UHGV virus genome: UHGV-1383976
Reading direction: 5' to 3' (one strand)
DNA: 64,000 nt
From: a virus
In this document: piece by piece, positions 31,040 through 46,990 of the stretch
Position numbering within the stretch: position 1 is the first letter of the stretch
Layout: each line of letters begins with the position of its first letter
Notes under the pieces: generated by a model
What the model was told of the DNA's origin: nothing
Seen by the model: the letters and a program-made list of their open reading frames with translations, nothing else
Databases searched by the model: none
Position numbers and translations under genes: made by a program

Positions 31040-32095
31040 ATGGCACAGATATCTTACCGTGTTGAAAATACGATTTATAGTTGGAGCACAACATCATATC
31101 TAAACTATACAACATCATATAATTCATTAACAAATCAAACTACAGTTACTTTTGAAAGTTGCGATCAGTCCTATTGGGGCACAGCGAACTATGGTACAAG
31201 TGTCACGACAAATATTACAGTCACAGCGGTTGATAATGCTTCTAGTGTGGAGACTTCTTATCTTAAAATTGATGGATATACAAACGGCGGTACGAAACAA
31301 TTTATTGGAACCCCATCTCCTGCTTCTGTCGTGGTGACGCACTCATCAGCAAGTGGTGCGAAACGGGTCAAGATTGATGTTTCTACAGCAATTTTCGTAG
31401 CAATGAGCGGCCGTATCCAGAAAACGGCAAATGGTTCTGGCACAGCAACCGTCACTTCTGGCACTCACTATCCTGAGCGAATTTTATCAATTAGTGCTGA
31501 AAATGCAACTGTAACTTGTCAACGTACAAGTTCGCCTGCCGGCGCAGGAACTGGCATATTAACAAATGGCGCAACGATTTATGACAGCGATGTTTTGAAA
31601 TTTACCTTTACGCCAGCAGCTAATTATACAATTAAGACACACACTGTAAATGGAGCTATATTTACATCTGGCCATTCGCATACTGTTAATGGCAATGTCA
31701 CTGTTGTAGTAGTTGCTGAACCGTCAATTTTTACATTATCTCTCAACCATGATAACGGTGTAAATTTAACGGTCAAACGAAATGGCACAGTCTTAGCAAA
31801 TGGAGCGGTATTGAATAAAGGAGAGGTTTTGACTGTTACTTATAGTTTAAAAGATGGTAACACGACCTCTATTCAAGAAGCGACCTTAAACGGTTCCCCA
31901 ATTTCGTCTGGTGCAACTCATACTGTCAATGGCAGTGTTGTTATTCGAGTTTATTCCCAAATGAAACAAACTCAATGTATGGTTTATCAGGCTGAAGTGT
32001 ATAATGGCTCAAACTGGGCAAATGTGGGTTTAGTTGAATTCTATGACTCGAAGTGGAAATATTATGGATACTTGGGTGCCGGGTCCGGTGTGTGA
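31040..32095 (+). CDS. Thr/Ser-rich adhesin-like tail protein
   Basis: ORF in the tail-fibre module. Confidence 0.45.
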   Translation: MAQISYRVENTIYSWSTTSYLNYTTSYNSLTNQTTVTFESCDQSYWGTANYGTSVTTNITVTAVDNASSVETSYLKIDGYTNGGTKQFIGTPSPASVVVTHSSASGAKRVKIDVSTAIFVAMSGRIQKTANGSGTATVTSGTHYPERILSISAENATVTCQRTSSPAGAGTGILTNGATIYDSDVLKFTFTPAANYTIKTHTVNGAIFTSGHSHTVNGNVTVVVVAEPSIFTLSLNHDNGVNLTVKRNGTVLANGAVLNKGEVLTVTYSLKDGNTTSIQEATLNGSPISSGATHTVNGSVVIRVYSQMKQTQCMVYQAEVYNGSNWANVGLVEFYDSKWKYYGYLGAGSGV

Positions 32096-32142
32096 ATAAA
32101 AATATAAGATAATTGAGATTTTACAAAAGGAGATCAATTCAA

Positions 32143-33138
32143 ATGATAGGCGTAGACCTAAATCAATATCGTAATCTACCTGATTACGCACAACTTAAAA
32201 AGGATGGTTATGAGTTCGCCATTATAAAACTGGCAACTGGTGTAACCTTTACTAACCCGCTTTTTCAAACCCAGTTTAGTGGTTGTAAGTCAGCCGGCCT
32301 AAACATCGGCGTTTATACTCGTGCCGACAAGCAACCTACAAGCGGCGCACAGGAAGCTGCCTATGCACTCAACATACTAGGTAATCGTCATGTAGATTTC
32401 CCCATCTACTATGACGTAGAGGGAGAAACACTAAATCTTTCAAAAGACAAGCTGACTCAGCTGGCTCTTGATTTTGGTAAAGCAATAAAACGCGCAGGAT
32501 ATCGCTGGGGTATTTATACATCCCGCGCACATTTCAAATGCTTTGACCTTGACAGGCTGAAAGAAGCTGGCGCATCTATATGGTGCGCCGCCTATGATAA
32601 TCAAGCTGGTATGGAGTGCGACATTTGGCAAAAGTCAGATAAAGGCTCTATTACAGGATATTCTGGACCAGTTGATGTAGATGTTTTATATAATGAAAGC
32701 ATAATACAGAAGGAGGAAAATAAAATGAGTTTGAATTTGATAAAATGTTTTCAAACACAAGGCGCGTGGTATAATCAAACCACAAATGGAACTCCTGTTG
32801 GGGTATGTTGGCACGATACCGGCGCTGGTAACCCAACATTGAAGCGCTATGTCCAGCCATCTACTAATGACCCCGATTATAATTATTTTATAAACCTTAT
32901 CGGCAAGAACAATAATGGCAATCACTGGAATCGTATGGCCGCAAATCAGGCAGGATTGAACGCTTGGATTGGTCAACTCGCGGATGGCAGTGTTGCTACT
33001 GTTCAGGCTGGCCCTTGGGAAAAGCGTCCTTGGGGTGTTGGCTCTGGCAGATACGGTTCACTTAATGGTGATAAGAATGTGCCTAATGATAAGTTTTGGA
33101 TCCAGTTTGAGATTACATCGTTGCTAGTCTCCGCGTAA
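32143..33138 (+). CDS. endolysin exon 1 (GH25 muramidase + N-terminal half of amidase_2)
   Basis: IGVDLNQY...GYEFAIIKAT (GH25); VCWHDTGAGN...GSLNGD (amidase_2 front half). Confidence 0.65.
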   Translation: MIGVDLNQYRNLPDYAQLKKDGYEFAIIKLATGVTFTNPLFQTQFSGCKSAGLNIGVYTRADKQPTSGAQEAAYALNILGNRHVDFPIYYDVEGETLNLSKDKLTQLALDFGKAIKRAGYRWGIYTSRAHFKCFDLDRLKEAGASIWCAAYDNQAGMECDIWQKSDKGSITGYSGPVDVDVLYNESIIQKEENKMSLNLIKCFQTQGAWYNQTTNGTPVGVCWHDTGAGNPTLKRYVQPSTNDPDYNYFINLIGKNNNGNHWNRMAANQAGLNAWIGQLADGSVATVQAGPWEKRPWGVGSGRYGSLNGDKNVPNDKFWIQFEITSLLVSA

Positions 33139-34182
33139 AGCGATTTGCGTGTAAAAATACATATCGAATTGCTGGAAAACCGTAAAGCTATTCTTGCTAC
33201 AACGTAAGGATGAAACAAGCCTAAGCGTGAAAGCCGCGAAAGCAGAAAGAAAAGAATAGATGGCGTATGGTTAAATCCTAAGCGCTATATAATTGGCAAT
33301 CAGCAGCTAAGCCTTGAATAAAGGAAAGTTCAACGACTAAGTGCCTTGCAAGCGATTGGCAAGGACAGTGGTATGCGGCTCATTGAGCCGAAGATATAGT
33401 CTGTGCTTCGAGAGAAATCCGAAGGAGCGAAAGCTCAGTGCGGGGTAGCGCCCAAAAAGTTTATTTTGAATGGAGAAAGAAATGACTTATAAAGAATTTA
33501 TTGACAATATTTTAGAAGAACGAGGACGTTTTTCGTGTGGAGAGGAATATCACGAGAGGCATCACATTCTTCCTAAGTGCAAAGGCGGCACAGATGATAA
33601 AGAAAATTTGATTGACTTATTTGCTAAAGAGCATTTTATTGCGCATAAATTGTTAGCTGAAGAAAATCCTGAAGATATAAGTTTGGTTAGGGCTTATCAA
33701 TGCATGACAATAGCTAGAAATCCAAAAACTGCACGATATATTGCTTCTTCTGAAGAGTATGAGGAAGCAAGAAAAATGTTTTCAGAAGCTCTCAAAGAAT
33801 TATATAAAGACAAAACAAAGCATCCAAGCTATGGCAAACATATTAGTGAAGAAAGAAAACAACGAATTAGTGAAGCCAATAAAGGAAATAAGTATTGCGT
33901 TGGCCGGAAAGTTTCAGAAGAAACACGCAAGAAAATAAGTGAAGCCAATTCGAACCCTTCCGCCGAAACGCGTGAAAAAATGAGTCAATCTCAAAAGAAG
34001 CTCGCACGGTGGGATGGAGCAAAGAATCCTAAAGCTCGAAAAGTTGTTCGTCTTTCTGATGGGAAAGTTTATGATTGTATTAAATATGCCGCCGAAGAAA
34101 ATAATATTCCTCTCTCCACTTTCAAAAGTAGATTACACAAAGGCAAAGGCGATTTTGTGTATTTCGAAGACTATCAAAATAA
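33139..34182 (+). mobile_element. putative group I intron carrying an HNH endonuclease
   Basis: 330-nt GC-rich ORF-free 5' segment + HNH ORF; splits the amidase_2 domain. Confidence 0.55.
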
Positions 34183-34192
34183 ACAGCACTAA
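33470..34192 (+). CDS. HNH homing endonuclease with NUMOD-like repeats
   Basis: HHILPKCKGGTDDKENL..HF.AH HNH motif; repeated ISEE/EANKG modules. Confidence 0.7.
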   Translation: MEKEMTYKEFIDNILEERGRFSCGEEYHERHHILPKCKGGTDDKENLIDLFAKEHFIAHKLLAEENPEDISLVRAYQCMTIARNPKTARYIASSEEYEEARKMFSEALKELYKDKTKHPSYGKHISEERKQRISEANKGNKYCVGRKVSEETRKKISEANSNPSAETREKMSQSQKKLARWDGAKNPKARKVVRLSDGKVYDCIKYAAEENNIPLSTFKSRLHKGKGDFVYFEDYQNKQH

Positions 34193-35265
34193 ACACAAAC
34201 AGATGTGACGATTACGCACACAACCAACCTTGTCGCAGATCTTATTTTGAACAAGCCTATCAGCAAGCTGTCGAATTTACTGCCTACATTTGCCAACTCT
34301 ATAACATAGACCCGTTTGGCACCGCCAATTACCGTGGCCACGATATTCCGACAATTTGTTGCCACTATGATAGCTATAAGTTTGGTTTTGGTTCCAATCA
34401 CAATGATGTCTATCAATGGTTCAATCGTTTTGGTAAAACTATGGATGATGTCAGACGCGATGTTGGCGCACTAATGGGTAAGGTTGTCGTTCCTGATACT
34501 CCCGACCCTGTCATTCCTTCTCAGCCATCTCGGCCTTCTAACCCTTATCCGACACTTAGGGTTAGCGCACATGGCGTTGCCGTCAAAACTGCGCAACAAC
34601 GTCTTATCGCACACGGTTATGATGTTGGTTCCGCTGGTGCTGATGGCTGGTTTGGTGAAGGTACTCTCAAGGCCGTCAAGAGGTTTCAGTCTGATAAGGG
34701 TCTTACTGTTGATGGCATAATTGGCTCTGCTACTTGGACAGCGCTAAACAAAGAGCCAGAGAAGAAAGAAGAACCAGTGCAGCCTGTGCAACCAAGTGAG
34801 CCAGCTAAGCCTATCCAACCATCCACTAATCGTCCGACAATCGGCGTTGGTGATAGTGGAGCTTACGTAAAAGAAGCCCAAACAATGCTGAAAAAGCTGG
34901 GCTATAACATTGGCTCCTATGGTGCGGATGGTGTGTTCGGCAACTCTACCAAAGGTGCAGTTCTCAATTTCCAAAAGAAGAGCAACCTCGATGCTGATGG
35001 CATTGTTGGCCCGAACACTTGGGCCAAACTCGATAAACAAATTGCCGCGCTATCTGATAATTCGACTAGCTCTAGTGGAGTTCCATTCCTTGTTCGAGTC
35101 AATTCAAATGCCCTTAACATTCGTAAAGGCCCCGGTACTAATTATGCTATTGCTCGTACTATAACCGACCGTGGCACCTACACAATAGTTGAAGTATCTG
35201 GTGATTGGGGCAAACTCAAGAGCGGCGCAGGCTGGATAAATCTGAATTATACTACCAGAGTTTGA
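34183..35265 (+). CDS. endolysin exon 2 (amidase_2 C-terminal half + 2×PG_binding_1 + SH3)
   Basis: frame open from 34183: RGHDIPTICCHYDS (amidase_2 Zn site); two PG-binding repeats; SH3b. Confidence 0.6.
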   Translation, partial: TALNTNRCDDYAHNQPCRRSYFEQAYQQAVEFTAYICQLYNIDPFGTANYRGHDIPTICCHYDSYKFGFGSNHNDVYQWFNRFGKTMDDVRRDVGALMGKVVVPDTPDPVIPSQPSRPSNPYPTLRVSAHGVAVKTAQQRLIAHGYDVGSAGADGWFGEGTLKAVKRFQSDKGLTVDGIIGSATWTALNKEPEKKEEPVQPVQPSEPAKPIQPSTNRPTIGVGDSGAYVKEAQTMLKKLGYNIGSYGADGVFGNSTKGAVLNFQKKSNLDADGIVGPNTWAKLDKQIAALSDNSTSSSGVPFLVRVNSNALNIRKGPGTNYAIARTITDRGTYTIVEVSGDWGKLKSGAGWINLNYTTRV

Positions 35266-35267
35266 TA

Positions 35268-35302
35268 CACGACACTCCTGTTTATCAGGAGTGTCTTTTT
35301 TT
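35268..35302 (+). terminator. rho-independent terminator
   Basis: acacgacactcctg/caggagtgtc followed by a T-run. Confidence 0.6.
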
Positions 35303-35311
35303 GAATGAAAT

Positions 35312-35340
35312 TTGATTTTTTTAAAATAGTATGCTATAAT
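35312..35340 (+). promoter_or_regulatory. family-A promoter
   Basis: TTGATT-17-TATAATATATATAGAAAATG. Confidence 0.6.
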
Positions 35341-35372
35341 ATATATAGAAAATGAGAAAAGGAGCTAATGAA

Positions 35373-35624
35373 ATGACTTCAAAAGAATTGGTAATAAAGG
35401 TGCTTGATAATCATGGCTGTCAGGATGTATATGCTATTGCGCGCGATGCCAAAAGATTATTCAAGGAAGACATAACTCCTTCTTCCGCTGGCGCGGCCCT
35501 CCGTTCGTTGGCAAAAGAAGGTGAGGTTGGCTCCTCACGAGATGGCAATGGCCGCACAATTTATTGGCTGGCCCGCACAAATAAGTACCATTGGGATGGG
35601 TATCTAAAGGGGGAGAATGAGTAA
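35373..35624 (+). CDS. hypothetical (winged-helix-like) protein
   Basis: RBS + ATG. Confidence 0.45.
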   Translation: MTSKELVIKVLDNHGCQDVYAIARDAKRLFKEDITPSSAGAALRSLAKEGEVGSSRDGNGRTIYWLARTNKYHWDGYLKGENE

Positions 35625-35996
35625 GTGAATTACAAGAATCGCGGTTATGATGTTTGGGAAAATGGCAAGATAATTTATAATGATGTTCAGATGGATTTTG
35701 TTGTTAAACTGATGCAGGAAAATGGTGCACCACTGGTAGTAACGCCGCACAGTGAACTGGTTGATCTTGGGACTGGACGATGGCCGCACAACCTATCGAA
35801 TGAAGAGCTGATTCAGGAAAATTCTTCTCTCCTTGATGATCTAATGAAGGCTCAAGACGATCTGGCTGATACTAACGCACAGTTAAGCGAAGCACAGGCC
35901 GCTCTTCATTATATGAGACACCTTTATGAGCAGCTAGAAAGTAAGTATGCGGAAGTCAAGCGTGTATATAAACAAATGGAGGAGGCACTAAAATGA
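35625..35996 (+). CDS. hypothetical protein (GTG start)
   Basis: RBS gggggag. Confidence 0.45.
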   Translation: MNYKNRGYDVWENGKIIYNDVQMDFVVKLMQENGAPLVVTPHSELVDLGTGRWPHNLSNEELIQENSSLLDDLMKAQDDLADTNAQLSEAQAALHYMRHLYEQLESKYAEVKRVYKQMEEALK

Positions 35997-36349
35997 GAAC
36001 GTTGAATCGCAAGAAGGCATTACGAAAAGTAAATAAAGTTGTGCGTGAACTCAATGAAGGAATGAGACGAGATAATCTGTGGCGTGGCCGCTTTTGGATT
36101 AGACAAAAAGAATTTTATGCTAAGCCTTATCCTGATAATTCTGGGCTTCAAGGCGTTGTTGTTCTTGAATTCCACGACCTCAAGACAGGATACGTTAGTG
36201 ATAAGATTTTTGACTTGATAAATTTTGAAGCCCCTTTTACGTGGCATATATGGCGCGATCTCAATACATTTATAACAGAAGAATGTGATGTATGGCGAAA
36301 GGAAGGTCGTGAAGCACTTTACTCTGATACGACTATATATAGAAAGTGA
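35993..36349 (+). CDS. hypothetical protein
   Basis: coupled ORF. Confidence 0.45.
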   Translation: MRTLNRKKALRKVNKVVRELNEGMRRDNLWRGRFWIRQKEFYAKPYPDNSGLQGVVVLEFHDLKTGYVSDKIFDLINFEAPFTWHIWRDLNTFITEECDVWRKEGREALYSDTTIYRK

Positions 36350-36358
36350 GAAGATGAA

Positions 36359-37564
36359 ATGCTTGATGTAAAAATTTTTGCACGTTGTATTGAACAGACC
36401 GCTGAAGAGCAAATATACGATTTAGCCGCCTCGTCGATAGGAGAAAACGCGCACATACGAATAATGCCGGATGCGCACGCTGGTAAGGGATGCGTAATTG
36501 GAACTACTATGTTAGTAAAAGATAAGATTTGCCCTAATATTGTTGGCGTTGACATTGGATGCGGAGTTACTGCTGCAAAAATTAACTGTCCTTTGATCAT
36601 GGATGAGTTAATGTTTTTGCGCGAACGCCTTGTAGATGGCGCAATACCATCAGGAAGCACTATATACAACGAATTTAGAGATTGGGATCCTTTTTTTGAA
36701 CTTGGCGCAACTATCCTTCGTAAGTTGAGATGTAAGGAAATTTACAATAAGTGTGAAATTGATTATTTTGCTAAGTCTATGGGAACACTCGGAGGCGGAA
36801 ATCATTTCATTGAAATAGACGAAGACTCCGATGGCAATCATTGGATTGTTGTACATACTGGCTCGCGCAATTTGGGCCTTCAGGTAGCAAAGTATTATCA
36901 AAACAGAGCAGAAATGCGAATTCTTGAAGAATATACTCACAAGCGTAATGCAGCTATCACTACGCTGAAAGAGGAAGGCCGCCAGCGTGAAATTTCAGAG
37001 GTATTAGCCTCTATCAAAAAAGATGCGCCATCTAAGTTTGATTATTTAGTAGATAATGACTATAATAACTATCTTCGCGATATGGCACTTTGTCAGAAGT
37101 GGGCAAAATATAACCGAGCAAATATTATTTATAACATTGCTGCAATTTTAAATCGCAAAGTTACAATGACAGTTGAGTCAGTTCATAACTATATAGATTT
37201 TTCAACTCAAACACCTATCCTCCGCAAGGGCGCAATTTCGGCTAAGTATGACGAGATTTGTCTTATTCCACTCAATATGCGGGATGGTACGCTACTGTGC
37301 CGTGGAAAAGGTAACTCTGATTGGAACTTATCAGCTCCACATGGAGCCGGACGACTTATGTCTCGCGCTCAGGCAAGAAAAGAATTATCTTTAGACGAGT
37401 TTGAAAAATCAATGGACGGCATTGTGTCAAACGTTTGTGCAGAAACCATTGATGAAGCACCTTTCGCTTACAAGAATTGGGAAGAGATTGAAGAAGCTGT
37501 GCGGCCTACCGTTGAAATTATTGACCACTGGAAGCCAATTTTCAATTTTAAGGCGATGTCTTAA
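36359..37564 (+). CDS. rtcB: RtcB RNA ligase (3'-phosphate/5'-OH)
   Basis: MPDAHAGKG, GVDIGCG, GGGNHF.E, HTGSR.LG, HNY, RKGA, SAPHGAGR motifs. Confidence 0.8.
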   Translation: MLDVKIFARCIEQTAEEQIYDLAASSIGENAHIRIMPDAHAGKGCVIGTTMLVKDKICPNIVGVDIGCGVTAAKINCPLIMDELMFLRERLVDGAIPSGSTIYNEFRDWDPFFELGATILRKLRCKEIYNKCEIDYFAKSMGTLGGGNHFIEIDEDSDGNHWIVVHTGSRNLGLQVAKYYQNRAEMRILEEYTHKRNAAITTLKEEGRQREISEVLASIKKDAPSKFDYLVDNDYNNYLRDMALCQKWAKYNRANIIYNIAAILNRKVTMTVESVHNYIDFSTQTPILRKGAISAKYDEICLIPLNMRDGTLLCRGKGNSDWNLSAPHGAGRLMSRAQARKELSLDEFEKSMDGIVSNVCAETIDEAPFAYKNWEEIEEAVRPTVEIIDHWKPIFNFKAMS

Positions 37565-37569
37565 AAAAT

Positions 37570-37598
37570 TTGATTTTTTATAAAAATTAAGCTATAAT
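37570..37598 (+). promoter_or_regulatory. family-A promoter
   Basis: TTGATT-17-TATAAT. Confidence 0.6.
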
Positions 37599-37629
37599 AT
37601 ATATAGAAAATGAAAGTGAGGGAAAGAAA

Positions 37630-37974
37630 ATGAAAAAAATTCTGATACTTACAGCCGAAGGCGCAACTCAGTATTTTATTCGTCAGAGTGCGACTGTGCG
37701 GCGGTGTGATAAAAGTGAGGTTCTTTCTCTTATGCTCAAGCCGCACTTGTTTAAAGTTGAAAGACGCCGCGTCAATGGAGGAGACTTGTGTGCGAATGTC
37801 TCACGTGATGTAGATAAATCATCTAAAAGACATTTCGATAAGACGTGGTATGCGGCATATGTATTGACTTGTTTCAATTGTTTGTTCCTTGGTTTCAACA
37901 ATTCGCTTCCCGACGAAGATTGTGAGCATTTTGATACGTTATGGGAGTATGCTAAAACAGGTAAAGTGTCATAA
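37630..37974 (+). CDS. hypothetical protein
   Basis: ORF. Confidence 0.45.
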   Translation: MKKILILTAEGATQYFIRQSATVRRCDKSEVLSLMLKPHLFKVERRRVNGGDLCANVSRDVDKSSKRHFDKTWYAAYVLTCFNCLFLGFNNSLPDEDCEHFDTLWEYAKTGKVS

Positions 37975-37988
37975 AGGAGGTATATCTA

Positions 37989-38231
37989 ATGAGTAAAAGT
38001 CCAGCACTTGTGCATCAAATATTACGCGACTGGCGCGAGGAAAGTAAAAGTCCTCCTTTTTCATATAGTTTTAATTGGGCAAAAGGTCAGATCGATATTT
38101 ACACAGCGCGGCCCGGCCTTTTGATTGGCAAGGGTGGTTCATTGGCTGAGAAGTATATTGGAAAAATGAAAGCCGCATACCCTTCTTTTAATATTCGACT
38201 TCATGAACTTGAATTGCATTATGTTAAATAA
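37989..38231 (+). CDS. hypothetical protein
   Basis: RBS aaggagg. Confidence 0.4.
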   Translation: MSKSPALVHQILRDWREESKSPPFSYSFNWAKGQIDIYTARPGLLIGKGGSLAEKYIGKMKAAYPSFNIRLHELELHYVK

Positions 38232-38246
38232 GAAAGGAGTATATCA

Positions 38247-39083
38247 ATGATAAATCCGCAGGAATATGTAAATAAGGCATATCAGCTTGGCGAAAAGGTT
38301 TATGGTAATCGTCTTATATTCGCCGCACATTACGGCTCTTTCAATTATGGCCTTGCCGATGAGGAAAGCGATTGTGATGTCGCTCTTATTGTAATGCCAT
38401 CAATGGAGGAAATTGTAAGGTGTGAAAGCTCCAACACTCCATTGAAGCACGTTCCTGAAGGCGACATTGATGTAATTGATGTTCGCACTTTTGTTAGACG
38501 ATTGGCTAACGCTGAGCTTAATTCTCTTCAGTATCTTTATGCGCCTTATCACAAGTGGAATGAATATTGGAATGATACTTTCGCGTCTCTTCACGGCAAG
38601 TTTCTTTGGGATATTGCTATGATAAATCCGTATGAACTTTTCTATAATATGCGGGGTGTAATAGCCCGCGCAAGTAAGCGAATGGATAATGTTAGTGAGA
38701 AAAATCCCTTTAGTCCATCTTGCTCTAAAGCTATTTATAATGCAATGCGAATGATCGACCTTGCGAACGCATTCGCTGATGATATTGAGGAAAATGGTCT
38801 TGGCACTTATAACGACATCAATATATTTTCTTGGGAGTATGGTGTTCATAGTAGGAAGGACTTGATGGCAATGAAACGCGGTTTATATTCATACACAACC
38901 GCCCGCGATTGTATTGATTCGTGTATGAAAGAAATTGATAAGTTCCATGATATATTTATCAATGAGGACAATGAAACCATAGCTTTGGATAATCGTGCGG
39001 TACAGCGTCTTGAGCGAATGATTGAAGGCGCTCTCATTAAACTTTACTTCAATGAAGCGGCTACACCAAAATTTTGGTCATAA
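38247..39083 (+). CDS. Pol-beta-superfamily nucleotidyltransferase
   Basis: GSFNYGLADEESDCDV (GS...DxD). Confidence 0.6.
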   Translation: MINPQEYVNKAYQLGEKVYGNRLIFAAHYGSFNYGLADEESDCDVALIVMPSMEEIVRCESSNTPLKHVPEGDIDVIDVRTFVRRLANAELNSLQYLYAPYHKWNEYWNDTFASLHGKFLWDIAMINPYELFYNMRGVIARASKRMDNVSEKNPFSPSCSKAIYNAMRMIDLANAFADDIEENGLGTYNDINIFSWEYGVHSRKDLMAMKRGLYSYTTARDCIDSCMKEIDKFHDIFINEDNETIALDNRAVQRLERMIEGALIKLYFNEAATPKFWS

Positions 39084-39087
39084 AAAT

Positions 39088-39116
39088 TTGATTTTTTCTC
39101 GAATTTTCGATATAAT
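39088..39116 (+). promoter_or_regulatory. family-A promoter
   Basis: TTGATT-17-TATAAT. Confidence 0.6.
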
Positions 39117-39143
39117 ATATATAGAAAGTGAGAGAGAAATATG

Positions 39144-39221
39144 GGCCGGATAACTCAGATGGTAGAGAACCAGTGCGGTTAGGCGCTGGAGGAGGCGGTG
39201 GTTCGAATCCACCTCGGCCCA
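39144..39221 (+). tRNA. atypical tRNA-like (7-bp anticodon stem, 6-nt loop GGTTAG)
   Basis: perfect acceptor ggccgga/tcggccc and T-arm ggtgg-ttcgaat-ccacc; non-canonical anticodon arm. Confidence 0.4.
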
Positions 39222-39224
39222 ATT

Positions 39225-40073
39225 AGATATGAAGGCGACATACAGTTATTATAGTCGCCGGACGTACTGCTCCGTCCATTACGAACAGAGCAGCCCCGCA
39301 AAACGAGGGTGAGAGTTGAGTTTGTTGGTTTTACTTGAAACCGCCGTCGGGGTAAGTGGCGTTACATCTTACCAAAAAAATCCGTCTGACTGCAGTAAGG
39401 GCGGTTGGTTTGTAGGTTTGCCAATAGGTATAAGTCTAGATACCAATAAAATACTTACCAAAGAGGAGTAATATGGCTGAAGTCCTCCAGCGTGGTTGAT
39501 ATGTTGAAATGCCTAGGCCACGCACATATGTCAGTTTAGTTTAACGAGGGAAAACAACGCCCGTCAAGGCGTAATTTCGGGTTCGAGTCCCGAAACTGTC
39601 CTTGGTTTGACAGGCCAAGAAATTTGTCAGGTGCGGCCCTTTGTCGCCGGTCGAGACTCCGTCCGGAAATGAGCTACGTCTAAGTAAGAAGCGTGAACTT
39701 AGCGCTGATGTGCGTGATGCATCGGTTGCGTGTCCAAAACACGACAGGTTTGGTTGAGTTTTCTACACAAAATTCAATTGGGTCAGGCCGCCCACAGGAT
39801 GGCCGCGGGTTCCACTCCCCGAACGAAAAACAATCGGGAAATCTCTTGTTTTTCTCAATTTTGTTAGTAGTTAGTCGCATTGATGAAATTGCTTTTTGGA
39901 GTAAAGTTGTGAGTAGCTAAAGAAATGACAATTCTTTTTCTACTCAAAAAGCCAAGTATCCGCCTCTGCTTGGACATCCGCGCGAGGTTGCGTGTTGATG
40001 AAAAGCGTGGAAGGCAGTTATATAATGGGGACTGCCGCATAGTTGGTTTAGGAGAGTTGCCAGCTACGGAAAT
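39225..40073 (+). ncRNA. candidate large structured ncRNA (~850 nt, GC-rich, ORF-free, with tRNA-like modules)
   Basis: no ORFs; embedded T-arm-like cgggttcgagtcccg; same transcription unit as the flanking tRNAs. Confidence 0.45.
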
Positions 40074-40150
40074 GGCGCATTGGACGAACTGGTAGAGTCA
40101 CCACCCTTTCAAGGTGGAACTTAGGGGTTCAAGCCCCCTATGCGTCACCA
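40074..40150 (+). tRNA. tRNA-Glu(TTC)
   Basis: anticodon ccacc-ctttcaa-ggtgg; T-arm agggg-ttcaagc-cccct; CCA. Confidence 0.65.
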
Positions 40151-40176
40151 ATAATTTTCATTTTTATATTCCCTTT

Positions 40177-40210
40177 TCTTAGAGTCCCGCGTAGATTAGC
40201 TACGCGGGAT
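40177..40210 (+). terminator. rho-independent terminator
   Basis: cccgcgtagattagctacgcggg followed by a T-run. Confidence 0.6.
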
Positions 40211-40239
40211 TTGATTTTTTAAGAATTTTTATTATAATA
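40211..40239 (+). promoter_or_regulatory. family-A promoter
   Basis: TTGATT-17-TATAAT. Confidence 0.6.
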
Positions 40240-40272
40240 TATATAGAAAGTGAAAAGAAAGGAATTTTAAAA

Positions 40273-40569
40273 ATGATAAAAGCAATTATTCTTGATGATG
40301 GTTATCATTCCAACGATGTGGTAATAAAGTTTGGGGAAAATTATAAGAGTGTTTCTCTTGTATATTTTTTGAATCTGCTCTGTAAGCGTCATGACTCTGA
40401 TTATGAAGTAAAAACCATTCATTTTGAGGATATTGGGGATGATGCCGTGGCGGAATGGTTTGAAATTCTAAATAATATGAGCTATTGTTCGTCTACTGTT
40501 CAGTCTTGCGAGGAGTTTGAGAAGCTTTGGGAGTCTGACGAGGTTGTAGATGGAATAGATGTGTATTGA
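40273..40569 (+). CDS. hypothetical acidic protein
   Basis: ORF. Confidence 0.45.
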   Translation: MIKAIILDDGYHSNDVVIKFGENYKSVSLVYFLNLLCKRHDSDYEVKTIHFEDIGDDAVAEWFEILNNMSYCSSTVQSCEEFEKLWESDEVVDGIDVY

Positions 40570-40584
40570 GAAAGGAGAACTCCA

Positions 40585-40902
40585 ATGAATCTTTGGGTTG
40601 ATGATATTAGAACTCCGCCCTTTGATAGCTATGTGTGGGCACGTTCTGTAAATGAAGCCATTACCGCTATCAAATCCTATGAGAGAAATTTCACTGGCGG
40701 CGACACTATTTTTATTAGTCTCGATCATGATGCTGGCGATTTTGCGAAAGATGGCGGAGATTATATTCATATTTTAAACTGGCTTGAGCGAGAAAAAATC
40801 GTAGACACTGGATATTTTTTTCATCTTCATACTATGAATCCTGTGGGAAGAGAAAATATGGAGAGAATTATTAGAAAAAATGGATGGAGGTTAGTGAAGT
40901 AA
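40585..40902 (+). CDS. hypothetical protein
   Basis: RBS aaggagaa. Confidence 0.45.
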   Translation: MNLWVDDIRTPPFDSYVWARSVNEAITAIKSYERNFTGGDTIFISLDHDAGDFAKDGGDYIHILNWLEREKIVDTGYFFHLHTMNPVGRENMERIIRKNGWRLVK

Positions 40903-41249
40903 TGGATGCTTTGGAATTTTTTCGTGAGAGAAGACGTATGTGTGTGTCTTTTGGCAACGTTTGCTCTAGTTGTCCTGCTAATGCAGAGGGTTATTGTATA
41001 GCCTTTGATGAGGATGAGGAAGCTGTCCCTATTGTTGAAAAGTGGTCTGCTGAACACCCACGCAAAACAAGACAAAGTGAGTTTTTAAAAATATATCCTC
41101 ACGTTTTGATAAATAAAATTGATGGATTTATAGAAATATGCCCAGCAGATTTGATACCTGATTATAGGGATGATACCGGACATTGCAATAGACGTAATAT
41201 TTATTGTATAGATTGTCGCCGCGAGTTTTGGCTACAGGAGATAGAGTGA
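40884..41249 (+). CDS. Cys-rich hypothetical protein
   Basis: ORF. Confidence 0.4.
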   Translation: MEVSEVMDALEFFRERRRMCVSFGNVCSSCPANAEGYCIAFDEDEEAVPIVEKWSAEHPRKTRQSEFLKIYPHVLINKIDGFIEICPADLIPDYRDDTGHCNRRNIYCIDCRREFWLQEIE

Positions 41250-41250
41250 T

Positions 41251-41775
41251 ATGGAAACAGTAAATTGTCTTCGCTGTGATTTTCGTCATAAGGATAATGG
41301 AAACTGTACTGCTGTCTGGGGATTTTGTACCGCGGTAGCGGCTGCACACTGCCCGATGTTGCGGAAATATTTAGATACGGGATTGACCCCAGAGCAGTGT
41401 GAAAGCGCAAAGGCTATCATTAAATCTGCCTTTAGCGATGATTCATCAAAGGAAGAGCGAATTCGTGAGCTACTAAAGGCCGACAAGGACGGGCGCATAG
41501 AGGTGCTGCCGTGCAAGGATTGGCTCAACATTGTTTTTGGGGATCAAGTTTTGTTTTGGGGAATTGATAAGGACTACATGAAGAACCCAATTCGTGAGAT
41601 TTCCGTATATGGCGCTGAACGCATCGGGTGGTATGACGGCTATGAAACCGTATATTTGAAAGGAACGGACGAAAACGGAGAAGCATGGGAGTTTTATCCA
41701 GAAGACATTGGAAAGACCGTATTCCTGACCTACAAGGACGCGAAGAAAGCATTGGAGGAGATGAAGGATGATTGA
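41251..41775 (+). CDS. hypothetical protein
   Basis: ORF. Confidence 0.45.
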   Translation: METVNCLRCDFRHKDNGNCTAVWGFCTAVAAAHCPMLRKYLDTGLTPEQCESAKAIIKSAFSDDSSKEERIRELLKADKDGRIEVLPCKDWLNIVFGDQVLFWGIDKDYMKNPIREISVYGAERIGWYDGYETVYLKGTDENGEAWEFYPEDIGKTVFLTYKDAKKALEEMKDD

Positions 41776-41959
41776 ATTAATACCTTGCCCGTTCTGCGGC
41801 GGTAAGGCAGAATGGGATAAGGGCAAAGCGCCTCAGTGTTCACAGTGTAAAGCGACAATACCATCTGCTGGGGGTGTATTTCGAAAATATTTTGATAAGA
41901 ATTATAGATACCGCCAATATATGGCTGGGCTTTGGAACAGGAGGGTTGACAATGGCTGA
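41768..41959 (+). CDS. zinc-ribbon protein
   Basis: CPFCGG...CSQCK. Confidence 0.35.
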   Translation: MIELIPCPFCGGKAEWDKGKAPQCSQCKATIPSAGGVFRKYFDKNYRYRQYMAGLWNRRVDNG

Positions 41960-42161
41960 CTATATTGAACGTGAAGTTGTTAAGGGGCTACTCAATATTA
42001 ACTATGGTGGCTATCTTGATGCCGTAGATCGTATCCCTGCTGCAGACGTTGCCCGGTGGTGCATGGGCGGTGGATTACGTGGGAGGCGGCAGGTAACGAC
42101 ATACCTTCGCCACACAGACATGAATGCTCGGTCTGCCACGACGCTGCGCAGGTGCTTATAA
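41952..42161 (+). CDS. hypothetical protein
   Basis: RBS ggaggg; GC-rich. Confidence 0.3.
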   Translation: MADYIEREVVKGLLNINYGGYLDAVDRIPAADVARWCMGGGLRGRRQVTTYLRHTDMNARSATTLRRCL

Positions 42162-42418
42162 ACGGTATTGAACTGCTCTCTGATTACTGCCCTAACTGCG
42201 GTGCGAAGATGGATGGTGACGCGAAATGATATGCCTTATAGTTTTTGCCGCACTTGCTTGTGCAGTAGGGGCGACACCACCAGCAACGGCCGCTGACATG
42301 ATGGCGATAGGCGTGTAGGTGCTGTGCGACATTGAATTGCTCAAGCTGATTTTTGGGAGAAGTTAATGGTGAGAGCCTAGTATGAATTCCCGGACATTAT
42401 GAAAGAAAGGATTAAAAT

Positions 42419-42688
42419 ATGATTATTTGTGCAGCGATTAAAGATACACGAACTGGTGCGATCTTTGGAGGAATTCGTCGTGGCAGCATTTATTCTGCGA
42501 TGCATGATGCAGGCATAATCCCTCCTCATGCAGCCGCAATTGAGGGATTCCTTGATGAGAGGGGAACTTTTTATGATAGATATGAAGCATATATTGTAGC
42601 TATGAATAATGGTCAAATGAGTGCTACGACTCGTCAGCACAAATGTGATAAAGGTGAGAAAGAATTATATTCGGAGGACTTATATTGA
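42419..42688 (+). CDS. hypothetical protein
   Basis: ORF. Confidence 0.4.
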   Translation: MIICAAIKDTRTGAIFGGIRRGSIYSAMHDAGIIPPHAAAIEGFLDERGTFYDRYEAYIVAMNNGQMSATTRQHKCDKGEKELYSEDLY

Positions 42689-42724
42689 TGGCAAGGATAG
42701 ATTTATGGGACTAAAGGGGACAAA

Positions 42725-43030
42725 ATGAGTAAATGTAATTGTTATCACGAAAGATCAGAGCGTAGATATATTTTTAATACTTTTACTGGGATGCCAGAAA
42801 CCTCATATCTTAGCACATATGGAGTCTGCTATGGCACAAAAGAATGTGATGTATGTGGTTGTGAGGGTGATGAAACTAGATGCAGTTTCTATCCCGAAAA
42901 GCGCGAAAAAGCCATTCAAGCCAATATTATGGCTTTTGAGAAACCAGCTTGTATTGACTGCCCATCTAATCCTAAGAATGGTGGAAATGGAATTTGCGCC
43001 TGCATCTTAGGGCAGGATGTAATTTATTGA
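42725..43030 (+). CDS. Cys-rich hypothetical protein
   Basis: ORF. Confidence 0.4.
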   Translation: MSKCNCYHERSERRYIFNTFTGMPETSYLSTYGVCYGTKECDVCGCEGDETRCSFYPEKREKAIQANIMAFEKPACIDCPSNPKNGGNGICACILGQDVIY

Positions 43031-43039
43031 GGTAAGAAT

Positions 43040-43240
43040 ATGAAACAAACAATTGAGTTAAATGCAAAAGATATCGAGCGGCTAATTGCAAAAGAGTTTG
43101 ACGTTAAAGAAGAACAAGTAATTGTCTCGCTCAGCAAAGTATATAGTGGATATGGAATTGGCGAGAATAAGGATTATGAGATCTGTGCTCTGATAAATAT
43201 GGGTGAAAATTATGACAGGAACAATAAATTGTATATATGA
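43040..43240 (+). CDS. hypothetical protein
   Basis: ORF. Confidence 0.35.
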   Translation: MKQTIELNAKDIERLIAKEFDVKEEQVIVSLSKVYSGYGIGENKDYEICALINMGENYDRNNKLYI

Positions 43241-43522
43241 AACCCCATGTGATGGTGTTCAAAGTGGGATAAGAAGTGTGATAAAAAGACGCCAGAGCGG
43301 GGACAAAGAGTTAAGTGCCATCCTATTGATGATGCGTTTACTAATAAAATGTGTCAATCAGAATCCGACCATGAGTGGGAATGTATTGGAATATCTACAA
43401 TAGGGACGGATTATATATGTAGAAAATGTTTTGCTCGAAAAAATGTCCCATATGAATCAATATAAAACTAAGGTTCCACGCATAATAAGTTGAATTTATC
43501 AATTGACTTAGAAGCGTGGAAC

Positions 43523-43551
43523 TTGTTTTTTTATAAAAATTGAGTTATAAT
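43523..43551 (+). promoter_or_regulatory. family-A promoter (TTGTTT -35 variant)
   Basis: preceded by a terminator hairpin; -10 TATAATATATATAGAAAATG. Confidence 0.55.
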
Positions 43552-43583
43552 ATATATAGAAAATGAGAAAAGGAGAATATAAA

Positions 43584-43940
43584 ATGAGAGAAAATTTGGA
43601 ATATATGATAAGTGCAATCAATGCAGCCACGATAAGTGCGGTTGCACATAGGTCCAATGGACTGATAGATAACAATTATGACCGTGCGCAAGAAATTAAG
43701 TTTCATCTTTGGTCTGTATGCGATCGTATAAATAGAGATGAGGGTGAAATAGTAGCTTGGGTTGGATTTGTTCCTGTTTATGAGATAACCTTTTTTTCTA
43801 TGCGGGATAGTTCTTTTGGTAATACATTAATACATAATCGTTCTAAGATTTATCTTGGAGAAGTTCCTCTTATCAGATTTGATAATGACGGTATCGAGAA
43901 ACCGACGACTATTTTTAGATATAAGGGAGAACTTATGTGA
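43584..43940 (+). CDS. hypothetical protein (paralog of 44933..45268)
   Basis: shared AHRSNG...F(F)xM.D.SFGNT...LIR..NDGI motifs. Confidence 0.5.
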   Translation: MRENLEYMISAINAATISAVAHRSNGLIDNNYDRAQEIKFHLWSVCDRINRDEGEIVAWVGFVPVYEITFFSMRDSSFGNTLIHNRSKIYLGEVPLIRFDNDGIEKPTTIFRYKGELM

Positions 43941-43970
43941 ATTTTAAAGCGGAGAATGGAGGAACAATAG

Positions 43971-44495
43971 ATGGCGGCTATAAAATTTGAGATTGATGGA
44001 AAGACTTATGATTTTACTTCGGAGAATTTTTGGGAGAAGTTTGTAATTGATAGCAATGGTAATATTATTCTGAAGCCAAAGGCGGAGATAAGAAATCCTT
44101 TTGAAAGAGTCGGAGAAGATAATAAAAAAGTCTTCTATGCTATGGATTGCTATGGTGGAGTTGCAAAACTTCGAGAGGGTGTTGCATGTATCGCGCCAGC
44201 CCTTTATGAAGTAGCTAATTATTGTACTGATGATAAACTTCTTCGACGGCGCGCTCTCTACGAAAAGCTTGAACGGTGTTTGTGGCGTTTTTCTATGGAG
44301 AATGGTGGAAGCGGAGATTATTATCCTGTTTTGAATAGAGAAACTCGTGAATGGTCTATTACTTATACGGAAATTCAAAGATTTGGGCCTTCTTTTAAGA
44401 CTTATGAGGTTTGTGGGCGTGCAATAGATGAAGTAATAAAACCGACATTAGATGGAATTGCCGAAGAGGAAATCTTTTCTTGGAAAGGGATATAA
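43971..44495 (+). CDS. hypothetical protein
   Basis: ORF. Confidence 0.5.
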   Translation: MAAIKFEIDGKTYDFTSENFWEKFVIDSNGNIILKPKAEIRNPFERVGEDNKKVFYAMDCYGGVAKLREGVACIAPALYEVANYCTDDKLLRRRALYEKLERCLWRFSMENGGSGDYYPVLNRETREWSITYTEIQRFGPSFKTYEVCGRAIDEVIKPTLDGIAEEEIFSWKGI

Positions 44496-44500
44496 TCTAT

Positions 44501-44767
44501 ATGTATCATTGTGAAGTATGTAGACATCATATCAACTTAGATTTAGATGCAGTGCCTACAAGGTGTGTTGACCCTGTAGCAAAATATTGTCAGGGTTGCA
44601 AATATGGCTGGATAAAATATCCAGATTGGGTTGAAACAAGAGAAGATCTCGATGGATGTTATTTCGATTCTAGCTGTATCTATGGGTTAGAAGGCACTCA
44701 GCCTACAGAAGAAGAGCTGGAAGAGTTCTATAGATGGTGGGATGAATGGAATGAGGCACAGCTATGA
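44501..44767 (+). CDS. hypothetical Cys/His-rich protein
   Basis: ORF. Confidence 0.4.
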   Translation: MYHCEVCRHHINLDLDAVPTRCVDPVAKYCQGCKYGWIKYPDWVETREDLDGCYFDSSCIYGLEGTQPTEEELEEFYRWWDEWNEAQL

Positions 44768-44928
44768 AAGTTAGAGAGCTAATTGAAAAATTAGAATCGT
44801 ATGCTAATAAATATGGAGATGATATTCCTGTTCGTACATTTGATTTAAATAGAGATATGTGCGATATAGATGAGGTTGAATTTAATCAGGGTTATGACTT
44901 AGAATATTATATTTATTTAGGAGCTTAA
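44764..44928 (+). CDS. small hypothetical protein
   Basis: coupled ORF. Confidence 0.3.
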   Translation: MKVRELIEKLESYANKYGDDIPVRTFDLNRDMCDIDEVEFNQGYDLEYYIYLGA

Positions 44929-44932
44929 AATT

Positions 44933-45268
44933 ATGAACGAACATTTGGAAAACATTATATATTCAATTAATCACGCAGTGGCTAAAGCGGCGATTCATCG
45001 GTCGAATGGAATATGGGATATAGAAAAAACTTACCATCGTGGGATAGATATCGCATTTGACCTTCGTTCAATATGCGAAATTATCAATAAAGATGTTGGC
45101 GAAGAACTTGTGGGAATAGAGACAACAAAGGTTTATGAGGTAGAATTTTTCGATATGCACGACGATTCTTTCGGTAATACAATTCAAGGCAATAAATCTA
45201 CTATTTGTATTGGAATGCTGCCACTTATTAGATATGAGAATGATGGAATACGTGGCGCGTGGGCATAA
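44933..45268 (+). CDS. hypothetical protein (paralog of 43584..43940)
   Basis: paralogy. Confidence 0.5.
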   Translation: MNEHLENIIYSINHAVAKAAIHRSNGIWDIEKTYHRGIDIAFDLRSICEIINKDVGEELVGIETTKVYEVEFFDMHDDSFGNTIQGNKSTICIGMLPLIRYENDGIRGAWA

Positions 45269-45923
45269 GCACGGGTATAAGTTTGATGACCTTTATAATA
45301 CTGATGAACAGCGTTATTTTTCGAAGCTCCGCAATTTTTTGACAAATTATAATCTCAAAACTGGCACGTATCCAACTGTCATAATTACAGGAGAGTGCGA
45401 TCCATCTCAGAATATGAGATGGGCAACTAAAGTAGCCAATGAGTGTAGTAATTTAGGTTGTAAAGTTGAGTTCCAGACGCACAATCTCTCCCTGAAAGAA
45501 TGCGATATACCGCGCGCGATTGATGTTTTGTCTTACTCCATAACGGATGCCCGTGAATATCTGTCGGCTTGGCGTTATGCAAAGCCCGGCTGGTGTCTCA
45601 ACCGTATGGTAATGATTCTGCGTGATGGCTTTGAATTTTTGAATAAGGATAACTTTTCTCCGATGGGCTTTGACCAGATTACGTTCAAAGCACTGAATTA
45701 CGGTGAGAGCGATGCTATCAATAAGTGGATTGATGAACACACCCCAGCATCTATTGATAATTTTTATGAGATAATGGAAAGCCGCAATGGTTCTACTCTT
45801 TCTGTGCGAGTTGATACTACCTGCCAGAAGGCTGAGGGGCGCTATTATGTCTTCCGTAGCGATGGCTATGTCTATGACAGTTGGGAAGCGACGATTCCTC
45901 TTGCGGATTGTAATATCCATTAA
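45239..45923 (+). CDS. hypothetical protein
   Basis: ORF; start uncertain. Confidence 0.4.
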
Positions 45924-45944
45924 AAGCAATAAGAACATTTAAAT

Positions 45945-45973
45945 TTGAAAATCCTCAAAATTTTTGCTATAAT
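45945..45973 (+). promoter_or_regulatory. family-A-like promoter
   Basis: TTGAAA-17-TATAAT. Confidence 0.5.
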
Positions 45974-46004
45974 TATTATAGAAAATAAGGAAAGGAAATA
46001 TAAA

Positions 46005-46244
46005 ATGGACAAGAATGATTGGATTCGATATCAAAAGGCGCAGCCGCTAAATGGAGAAAGAGTTTGGGTTTTACCTTATAGCCCCTATGTTCCGTGGCCA
46101 TATCTTGATCTGGTAGAGCTGTGTGAATATCAGTGGAACCAGTTGGTATGTGATTTTGAGTGGGTAGTTCTCCGTACTGGAGAGAGGTTGAAAACAAGTG
46201 AAATGGATTATTGGTGCACGGTTAGTGTGCCAGAAAGGTGGTAA
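46005..46244 (+). CDS. hypothetical protein
   Basis: RBS aaggaaagga. Confidence 0.45.
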   Translation: MDKNDWIRYQKAQPLNGERVWVLPYSPYVPWPYLDLVELCEYQWNQLVCDFEWVVLRTGERLKTSEMDYWCTVSVPERW

Positions 46245-46248
46245 AATA

Positions 46249-46497
46249 ATGCTGAGATTCAAGGCAACTTATTGGGATGAATTTATGGGTGAGAGTGGCG
46301 ATGAGCATACTGTCTGGGGCGTTTGCGAGGGGCCGTCTTTCTTTGAAGCAACAAAGCGCATTGAGGACGCGTTTGGCAAGGATCTCCTGAGTGTTGAGGT
46401 TATGGCTGGGGACGATTATGAAGATGAGATTTTTCTGATTGATTCTGACAATGAAGGCTGGCTCAGGGCGGCGCTTTCAAACATCCAAGAGAGATAA
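46249..46497 (+). CDS. hypothetical protein
   Basis: RBS aaaggtgg. Confidence 0.45.
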   Translation: MLRFKATYWDEFMGESGDEHTVWGVCEGPSFFEATKRIEDAFGKDLLSVEVMAGDDYEDEIFLIDSDNEGWLRAALSNIQER

Positions 46498-46537
46498 GTA
46501 AAACGAATACAAAACAAAATTGAAAGGAATTTGTAAG

Positions 46538-46990
46538 ATGAAGAAGATTATATCCACAATTTGTCTAATTCTTTTGTGTGCAGTTATGCTTGCACTGATG
46601 ACTGGTTGCGGTGCGACCGCCGCACAGACTATTGAAACGGAAAGCGCGGCAACGCCCGTTCCTATGACTCCAGAGCCGACGCCTTCTACCACGCTTAAAT
46701 CCATCAATGATCCTATTGCTGGCGATTGGATTATGTATCAGGCTGAGGTAAATGGTGTCGCTGTTGGCCCTGAAATAATTGTTGATTGGGGCTATACTTT
46801 GACAATTGATTCTGATGGTTATGCGGTTCTTATAACAAGTGATGATACCATTTATAGTGTTGCTGAATATACAAAGAGTGATGGCCAGTTTGATTGGTAT
46901 GATATTGGCGCGATGGCTATTATTTATGATACTAAGAATGATGTGCTTGCACTAACTAACTACTCTGATATATTTTATTACGCTAGATAA
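46538..46990 (+). CDS. lipoprotein
   Basis: signal peptide + lipobox LMTGC. Confidence 0.5.
   Translation: MKKIISTICLILLCAVMLALMTGCGATAAQTIETESAATPVPMTPEPTPSTTLKSINDPIAGDWIMYQAEVNGVAVGPEIIVDWGYTLTIDSDGYAVLITSDDTIYSVAEYTKSDGQFDWYDIGAMAIIYDTKNDVLALTNYSDIFYYAR

Follow-up and report, generated by a model that had tools for sequence, protein, structure and literature searches.

Within the 64,000-nt stretch of DNA analysed here, which comes from the virus genome UHGV-1383976 and which we refer to as the window, positions 39088-40212 of the + strand read as a single noncoding unit of about 1.1 kb that extends from a promoter to a terminator and is presumably transcribed in one piece. Our preferred interpretation, to which we assign a probability of roughly 55%, is that this unit represents a new family of large, ornate, structured phage RNA with a layout like that of the GOLLD RNAs, in which mimics of transfer RNA (tRNA) serve as processing punctuation. 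This interpretation builds on the anatomy of the unit, its conservation and covariation, its noncoding status, its absence from Rfam and its gene neighbourhood. The window as a whole contains phage genes (baseplate, endolysin), 13 canonical tRNAs and a ROOL RNA.

Along the + strand the unit consists of a first tRNA-like module, a structured domain A, a second tRNA-like module, a structured domain B and a canonical tRNA-Glu, in that order, with domain B joined to the tRNA-Glu without any spacer (40073/40074); the coordinates of all these parts are listed in Table 1. The promoter that the original prediction had placed at 39088 was recovered there by a consensus scan as TTGATT-17-TATAAT, and transcription would start near 39123. 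An extended, 41-nt form of this promoter motif occurs ten times in the window, always on the + strand, where no copy is expected by chance, and perfect copies are found at 10107, 16096 and 39088, that at 16096 lying upstream of the cluster containing tRNAs and ROOL. Some positions and descriptions had to be adjusted: the terminator announced at 40177 exists, but its stem begins at 40182; the first tRNA-like element, expected at 39144-39221, is also real, with an acceptor stem that begins at 39143; the region called GC-rich is so only relative to its surroundings (GC content of 0.43-0.52 within the unit versus 0.28-0.43 in the flanks); and the noncoding stretch of about 850 nt, which measures 852 nt from module 1 to the tRNA-Glu, is in fact split by the 72-nt module 2 into parts of 308 and 472 nt.

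For the two modules ARAGORN returned anomalous calls, one at 39142-39222 with a four-base 'anticodon' (gtta) and one at 39530-39601 with a two-base one (tc), and it made a normal call for the tRNA-Glu(ttc). The Rfam tRNA model (RF00005, threshold of 29 bits) matched all three in a scan of 1.5 kb, with E-values of 1.6e-4 for module 1, 2.2e-7 for module 2 and 8.8e-11 for the tRNA-Glu. Direct reading of the sequence agreed with the arms that had been described for both modules. In module 1 the acceptor stem measures 7 bp, the D arm contains GG and the T arm (GGUGG-UUCGAAU-CCACC) is canonical, and the place of the anticodon arm is taken by a 7-bp stem (39170-39176 with 39183-39189) that closes the hexaloop GGUUAG (39177-39182). 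Module 2 is a full cloverleaf with canonical D and T loops (T arm UCGGG-UUCGAGU-CCCGA), in which the arm at the anticodon position is a 5-bp stem closing the hexaloop CGUCAA (39562-39567). The discriminator base is A in module 1 and C in module 2, and neither module encodes CCA, which is encoded by 13 of the 13 canonical tRNAs of the window, a criterion that applies within this genome and is not universal. Both likewise lack a canonical anticodon arm, in which a 5-bp stem carries a 7-nt loop with U33 and a 3-nt anticodon. Because the decoding anticodon loop and the encoded CCA have been lost, we read the modules as tRNA-shaped elements that are not translational adaptors. Both retain G18G19 in the D loop and a T loop of the UUCGA type, and the L-shape is therefore expected to form. 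A U at position -1 and an AU-rich leader are present at all three junctions, those of the two modules and that of the tRNA-Glu, as they are ahead of the window's real tRNAs.

The unit is not confined to this genome. The RlaP-like protein encoded just upstream has 24 database relatives with 71-92% identity, and in all 13 of the related loci reached through it two small open reading frames (ORFs) of 114 and 80 aa and the RlaP gene are followed by a gene-free gap of 1.0-1.3 kb. This gap aligns with the unit of the window, in the same place, in 16 of 16 distinct related contigs of human-gut phages, and a metagenome motif scan yielded six further loci, one of them the L006 contig again; one source record is titled human gut metagenome. 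The promoter is conserved in all the relatives and the terminator is nearly invariant. Nucleotide identity to the window averages 89.8% in domain B (85.5-98.7%) and 87.6% in domain A, compared with 80.8% in the RlaP coding sequence and with 88.6% and 87.8% in the two small upstream ORFs. In conservation the noncoding stretch thus equals or exceeds the coding genes beside it, and is therefore under selection. The tRNA-Glu, absent from the relatives L003 and L012, is not obligatory.

The level of identity to the window also shifts abruptly at the borders of the modules when 39143-40150 is compared with L001-L023. In L003 domain B is 89% and domain A 78% identical to the window, in L012 module 1 is 98.7% and domain A 83% identical, and in L021 the values are 98.7% for domain B and 88% for domain A. 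Given these shifts from part to part, the parts seem to have been exchanged by recombination as cassettes.

These comparisons bear on the idea that a tRNA array is decaying here, or that the region is spacer without a function, in which case the tRNA-like hits would be pseudogenes and the remainder would be drifting. The non-canonical anticodon loops and the missing CCA would fit such decay, as would a T-arm-like hairpin in domain B that could be a tRNA relic, yet the inter-module sequence matches or surpasses the adjacent genes in conservation, 98.9-99.4% of the predicted pairs are kept and show compensatory changes, double changes in all arms maintain the cloverleaf of module 2, and the unit has a conserved promoter and terminator of its own. 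We consider decay very improbable. The comparative check thus upheld the earlier view that this is not simple intergenic spacer, both in the recurrence of the unit and its inter-module sequence among the 16 contigs and in the compensatory changes of its helices.

Among the relatives module 2 shows changes on both sides in 7 of its 21 cloverleaf pairs, spread across all four arms, and position 2:71 is unpaired in eight of eight distinct sequences. Its loop takes the form NRUCAA on three different stems (7/10 listed sequences). For three relatives two readings of the arm are possible, a loop of 3 nt or the 7-nt loop CAGUGGC, the latter being non-canonical on account of A33 and a mismatched stem, and a canonical anticodon loop was found in none of the relatives listed. 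The acceptor, D and T arms of module 1 are conserved as well, the changes in the acceptor being compensatory. For the central arm of module 1 there are at least five forms, unrelated to each other and 13-20 nt long, in a setting where the flanking arms share 90-100% identity, and L016, which has the same arm form as the window, carries a compensatory change from C-G to U-A in the 7-bp stem. The cloverleaf form of both modules is, by this pattern of substitution, kept by selection.

Domains A and B fold into approximately 11 and 19 helices, respectively, in the RNAalifold consensus, which for domain B was computed from 11 sequences. Together they contain 202 consensus pairs, of which 98.9-99.4% are maintained and 23 have changed on both sides. 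In domain A 98.9% of the cells are paired and 11 pairs changed on both sides, where shuffling gives 6.5 (1/500) and sliding of the partners 0-2; in domain B 99.4% of the cells are paired and 12 pairs changed on both sides, the corresponding values being 6.1 ± 1.4 for shuffling (0/500) and 0-3 for sliding. The minimum free energy of the 852-nt stretch has a z-score of -2.35 relative to shuffles, and many of the conserved G-U pairs are compatible with the + strand only. These results support the helices of the two domains but do not prove each single one.

An all-against-all column scan gave only local helices among the well-supported ones, with no convincing long-range helices or pseudoknots between A and B. 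A candidate kissing contact of codon-anticodon type would join UUGAU (39496-39500), in a terminal loop of domain A, with GUCAA (39563-39567) in the loop of module 2: UUGAU is present in the seven of seven sequences with the UCAA loop and both motifs are missing from the other four of four, but a 5-bp complementarity arises in 23-27% of random trials, which makes the pair not distinguishable from chance, and we regard the contact as a weak lead. Two self-complementary motifs stand in domain A, ACUGCAGU (39389-39396), which is invariant among the relatives, and CCUAGG (39512-39517), found in 10 of 11 relatives and reading CCUAGA in L010; by analogy they are candidate self-kissing contacts, if the RNA oligomerises like GOLLD and ROOL. 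The T-arm-like hairpin of domain B, CGGG-UUCCACUC-CCCG at 39806-39821, shows a compensatory change from C-G to A-U in relatives and is preceded by a GGCC/GGCC stem, so that the piece resembles the 3' half of a tRNA; nhmmer aligned it weakly to a tRNA of L027 (E = 1.6, not significant).

A further alternative is that the region codes for one or more small proteins. Its longest ORF has 75 aa and a GTG start, the + strand has ORFs of 75, 56 and 51 aa, and one AGGAG-ATG context exists at 39464-39476. Stops or frameshifts, however, break the three + strand ORFs in 8, 9 and 9 of the 10 relatives compared, respectively, and single-base indels are dispersed along the alignment. On these grounds we rejected a coding function, which we hold to be extremely improbable, and the description of the region as ORF-free holds in the sense that nothing longer than 75 aa is present and that the three longest + strand frames are disrupted in most relatives.

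The original prediction had mentioned GOLLD and ROOL as possible relatives of this RNA. Using Rfam 15 we found no family other than tRNA at E<=10 in 38900-40400 (1.5 kb), nor at E<=1 in L003 and L012; domain A alone had no match at E<=10 and domain B alone gave only noise at that threshold. The Infernal scans thus returned neither the GOLLD model (RF02032, 416 positions covering the 3' domain, gathering score of 150 bits) nor the ROOL model (RF03087, gathering score of 99.1 bits), in the region or in the domains taken alone. The same models matched our positive controls, giving 216.4 bits for GOLLD in the mycobacteriophage PegLeg and 271.8 bits for ROOL at 17153-17800 of the window, and membership in either family was therefore rejected. 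Direct reading of domain B also found none of the GOLLD consensus motifs (the UCAAAAG loop, AAAGCAAAAGUCUU, GAGUGGU and others in the PegLeg alignment).

As a statement about layout the comparison with GOLLD fares better. In GOLLD RNAs a linker, in which phage tRNAs are sometimes found, joins a variable 5' domain to a conserved 3' domain (PMC12286853), and the succession of a 5' domain, a tRNA-like element in the linker and a 3' domain seen here runs parallel to this. Both are phage RNAs of at least 800 nt that lie beside or inside tRNA arrays and have two domains, a linker able to hold a tRNA and many helices, with a better conserved 3' domain of about 420-470 nt (here 89.8% for B as opposed to 87.6% for A). 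They differ in that the unit is unmatched by the covariance model and lacks the consensus motifs, in that its embedded modules are non-decoding tRNA mimics, and in that a second mimic stands ahead of the 5' domain.

The unit could nevertheless be a true but highly divergent GOLLD, with A as the variable 5' domain, module 2 as the linker tRNA and B as the conserved 3' domain. Its layout, its size (about 930 nt with the modules), its phage origin and its adjacency to tRNAs fit the published descriptions, the 416 positions of the 3' domain in the Rfam model are near domain B in size, and B is somewhat better conserved than A. Against this, a model that gives 216 bits on PegLeg stays unmatched at E<=10 in the region and in each domain and at E<=1 in two divergent relatives, and the motifs are missing from domain B. 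We consider this kinship quite unlikely.

The PegLeg locus (L017, 643-1541) contains, in this order, two tRNA-Asn genes, the GOLLD 3' domain (1047-1460) and, 9 nt later, a tRNA-Gln. The linker of its GOLLD carries a T-arm-like insert, GGUUCGACUCC, and the 'hypothetical protein' annotated at 885-1028 probably falls in the GOLLD 5' region.

Like ROOL, the unit is a large and ornate RNA that a phage encodes within a tRNA cluster; promoters of one family precede both, at 16096 in the case of ROOL, and the ROOL of the window is butt-joined to a tRNA-Met (17800/17801) just as domain B is to the tRNA-Glu. ROOL, in contrast, consists of one intertwined domain (about 570-650 nt) and has no tRNA-like modules inside it, and its model does not match the unit. 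Within 16096-17956 of the window the ROOL cluster, preceded by the promoter copy at 16096, has the order tRNA-Pro, tRNA-Thr, tRNA-Trp, ROOL, tRNA-Met and tRNA-Gly. Both GOLLD and ROOL are located near phage tRNA islands (PMC12286853). Because the layout near phage tRNAs matches and because ROOL is likewise butt-joined to a tRNA, we place the unit beside these two RNAs, and by this analogy A and B may be of the same functional kind, that is, abundant structural RNAs expressed together with phage tRNAs. No earlier description of the unit was found in the literature searched, and among the candidates of a large survey of structured viral RNAs none exceeds 151 nt.

The genes around the unit (Table 1) were annotated using Pfam and PHROGs for the RNA-repair genes upstream. 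The 114-aa ORF, the 80-aa KH-like ORF and the RlaP gene stand directly ahead of the RNA in each of the 13 relatives with upstream genes listed; RtcB is missing in 4 of these 13 (L003, L012, L013 and L016) and is consequently not obligatory, and the gene content downstream differs among the relatives. RlaP adds one or two nucleotides to damaged RNA 3' ends and is required to restore heavily damaged tRNA (PMC12776372), and the cREC domain is predicted to process cyclic phosphates (PMC7824862). This neighbourhood of RtcB, KH-like, RlaP and cREC genes suggests that the mimics may interact with the machinery of tRNA damage and repair or with host anticodon nucleases.

Table 1. Position and supporting evidence of the parts of the noncoding unit and of the genes around it in the window.
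Feature	Position	Strand	Evidence or remark
RtcB ligase	36359-37564	+	Pfam 3.4e-58
114-aa ORF	37630-37974	+	Upstream of RNA
80-aa KH-like ORF	37989-38231	+	Pfam KH_2 0.0025; uS3 ribosomal protein KH domain E=0.003
RlaP-family nucleotidyltransferase	38247-39083	+	Pfam RlaP 5.9e-6
Sigma-70-type promoter TTGATT-17-TATAAT	39088-39116	+	Consensus scan; conserved in all relatives
tRNA-like module 1	39143-39221	+	ARAGORN 'tRNA-???'; Rfam tRNA 32.5 bits
Structured domain A, 308 nt, ~11 helices	39222-39529	+	RNAalifold consensus, 64 pairs
tRNA-like module 2 (72 nt)	39530-39601	+	ARAGORN 'tRNA-???(tc)'; Rfam tRNA 42.9 bits
Structured domain B, 472 nt, ~19 helices	39602-40073	+	RNAalifold consensus, 138 pairs; best-conserved part
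Canonical tRNA-Glu(UUC), 7-nt anticodon loop, encoded CCA	40074-40150	+	ARAGORN; Rfam 55.2 bits
Intrinsic terminator, 13-bp stem, 5-nt loop, T run	40182-40212	+	Terminator scan; nearly invariant among relatives
98-aa ORF	within 40273-40902	+	Downstream of RNA
cREC (cyclic-phosphate-processing receiver) domain protein	40585-40902	+	Pfam cREC_REC 8.9e-21

As for what the mimics do, they are probably processing signals for RNase Z and RNase P, or else attached appendages. Punctuation is the simplest reading because the modules keep what RNase P and RNase Z recognise, and the prerequisites for processing are seen in them: an intact acceptor and T arm, the elbow, the lack of CCA and the U at -1. 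In the maturation of Bacillus subtilis tRNAs the CCA acts as an anti-determinant that blocks RNase Z. Since CCA-less precursors are cleaved endonucleolytically after the discriminator, RNase Z would be expected to cut past modules 1 and 2, at 39221/39222 and 39601/39602, and RNase P would cut on the 5' side of module 2 (39529/39530) and of the tRNA-Glu (40073/40074). Such cuts would free domains A and B with exact ends, and the CCA-bearing tRNA-Glu would mature normally. Alternatively module 2 might remain attached, as a tRNA-like linker of the type present in some GOLLD RNAs.

Several points weigh against this interpretation. Processing at the borders of the modules is something that we infer throughout from the sequence, and in L003 and L012, which have no tRNA-Glu, the RNase P cut would not be available for the 3' end of B. 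Anticodon arms that served cleavage only should drift, yet the stem of module 1 has a compensatory change and the RUCAA loop of module 2 is kept across stems; these features, together with the cassette-like arm of module 1, hint at an extra role of the arms. The structure that was tested derives from the same alignment, and the relatives are close (81-99% identity per domain), with few independent covariation events. Finally, the link to RNA repair, like any role of the RNA in translation or repair that might be proposed from it, is guilt by association within one clade, with RtcB missing in four relatives.

A different explanation, the main rival, makes the tRNA mimics the functional core of the RNA. 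They would draw off defence nucleases of the host that target tRNAs, in the manner of decoys or sponges, or would be dedicated substrates or guides of RlaP, RtcB or the KH-like protein, with A and B as the scaffold. The unit lies between the RlaP and cREC genes and near RtcB, and the wholesale swapping of the module 1 anticodon arm between flanking arms that are 90-100% identical is the kind of hypervariability typical of conflict interfaces. The loops contain GUU, GUC/AUC or GUG, which are anticodons of the tRNAs for Asn, Asp and His; these are the tRNAs targeted by nucleases of the colicin-E5 type. A loop like that of tRNA-Asp but one nucleotide short would moreover resemble a damaged and religated tRNA, such as RlaP helps to restore. 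However, A and B amount to 780 nt of strongly conserved structure, which goes beyond the needs of a passive scaffold, four relatives keep the RNA without RtcB, conservation of the GUN motif does not extend to the other forms of module 1, and no decoy of this kind was found in the literature searched. We regard this explanation as possible but doubtful. With equally low confidence we put forward a related proposal, that the unit is a third class of giant ornate phage RNA in which the mimics are integral and their anticodon arms are rapidly exchanged cassettes facing host defences that target tRNAs, so that the RNA would act as a platform for counter-defence and tRNA repair together with the KH-like protein, RlaP and RtcB. 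If true, such a platform would offer the first functional handle on RNAs of the GOLLD and ROOL kind.

Other systems in which tRNA-shaped RNA occurs resemble the unit in part. In MALAT1/mascRNA and in mitochondrial tRNA punctuation a tRNA-shaped element also sits in a long noncoding transcript, with the acceptor and T arm kept and the anticodon arm non-functional; these cases are eukaryotic or organellar and their cleavage was shown experimentally, whereas cleavage in the phage unit is what its sequence would predict. The Y RNAs of the YrlA type, found in rsr-yrl-rtcBA operons (PMC4201824), are noncoding RNAs with a tRNA-mimicking domain beside RtcB repair genes, but they are of about 100-200 nt and bind Ro60/Rsr, the phage RNA being approximately five times larger. 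None of the 28 ORFs scanned in 27712-46990 has a TROVE (Ro60/Rsr) domain, the Rfam scans gave no Y RNA family (the presence of YrlA in Rfam 15 was not verified), and with no Ro protein nearby the Y RNA idea was rejected. Phage tRNAs that evade host anticodon nucleases are likewise phage-encoded and tRNA-shaped, with unusual anticodon loops and a context of tRNA repair, but they keep a 7-nt loop and decode, while in the modules the loops have 6 nt or the arms are non-canonical in other ways, and CCA is missing. Transfer-messenger RNA (tmRNA) was also rejected, as neither ARAGORN nor Rfam made a tmRNA call in the window and the 3:70 pair is not G-U in either module.

To our knowledge GOLLD and ROOL are among the largest structured RNAs of bacteria and phages, and their function is still unknown more than 15 years on. 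In this setting the preferred interpretation, a new RNA family punctuated by tRNA mimics, would mean that, besides ROOL, this phage carries another large structured RNA, unrelated to it but alike in its genomic habits, namely adjacency to tRNAs, the same promoter family and butt-joining to a tRNA. What goes beyond ROOL and GOLLD is the presence of non-decoding tRNA mimics at the domain borders and the setting in a cluster of RNA-repair genes. If confirmed, the unit would enlarge this class of RNAs and suggest tRNA-shaped modules as a general design principle of it, for processing or for cargo, and it would indicate tRNA damage and repair as the biological arena.

So far the known distribution of the unit is one narrow clade, apparently of phages of about 125-133 kb. 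Among cultured phages the only DNA match was for the tRNA-Glu, and the RlaP matches, in Bacillus, Listeria and related phages, reached just 24-35% identity. Scans of IMG/VR, both by exact motif and by RlaP alignment, gave only two contigs already known and a 17-mer that matched L009 by chance; no real relatives of the RNA came from scans of the GTDB genomes, and for the 114-aa neighbour no distant homologues were found. Sister clades were reached through RtcB (about 51% identity). Of the contigs obtained in this way, L027 has nothing comparable to the RNA unit, and in L026 nhmmer found no similarity to A or B. At 11079-12447 L026 has a tRNA array that contains a 465-nt unassigned spacer (11304-11768) with a fold z-score of -0.28, and the gene upstream is not RlaP. 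The spacer is followed by a tRNA-like element (11769-11837) with a shortened anticodon arm, detected by Rfam only (49.8 bits), and then by a tRNA-Glu(UUC). L026 also carries a skipping-rope RNA (RF02924, 59.2 bits) at 9488-9558, downstream of RtcB.

Some features elsewhere in the window deserve mention. ARAGORN reported a 92-nt 'tRNA-Phe(gaa)' at 13973-14064, without an encoded CCA and without a match to the Rfam tRNA model, which may be a false positive or a tRNA-like element. At 29192-30139 an ORF matches weakly the N-terminal domain of Mtd, the major tropism determinant, a target of diversity-generating retroelements. A group I intron match of 66.7 bits is present at 20207-20482, the second in the window. 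The other (Rfam, 33075-33424) appears to split the endolysin gene at 32113-35265 and carries an HNH/NUMOD3 homing-endonuclease ORF (33470-34192); in L005 and L006 the endolysin is uninterrupted, a protein of 668 aa with GH25, amidase and PG-binding domains.

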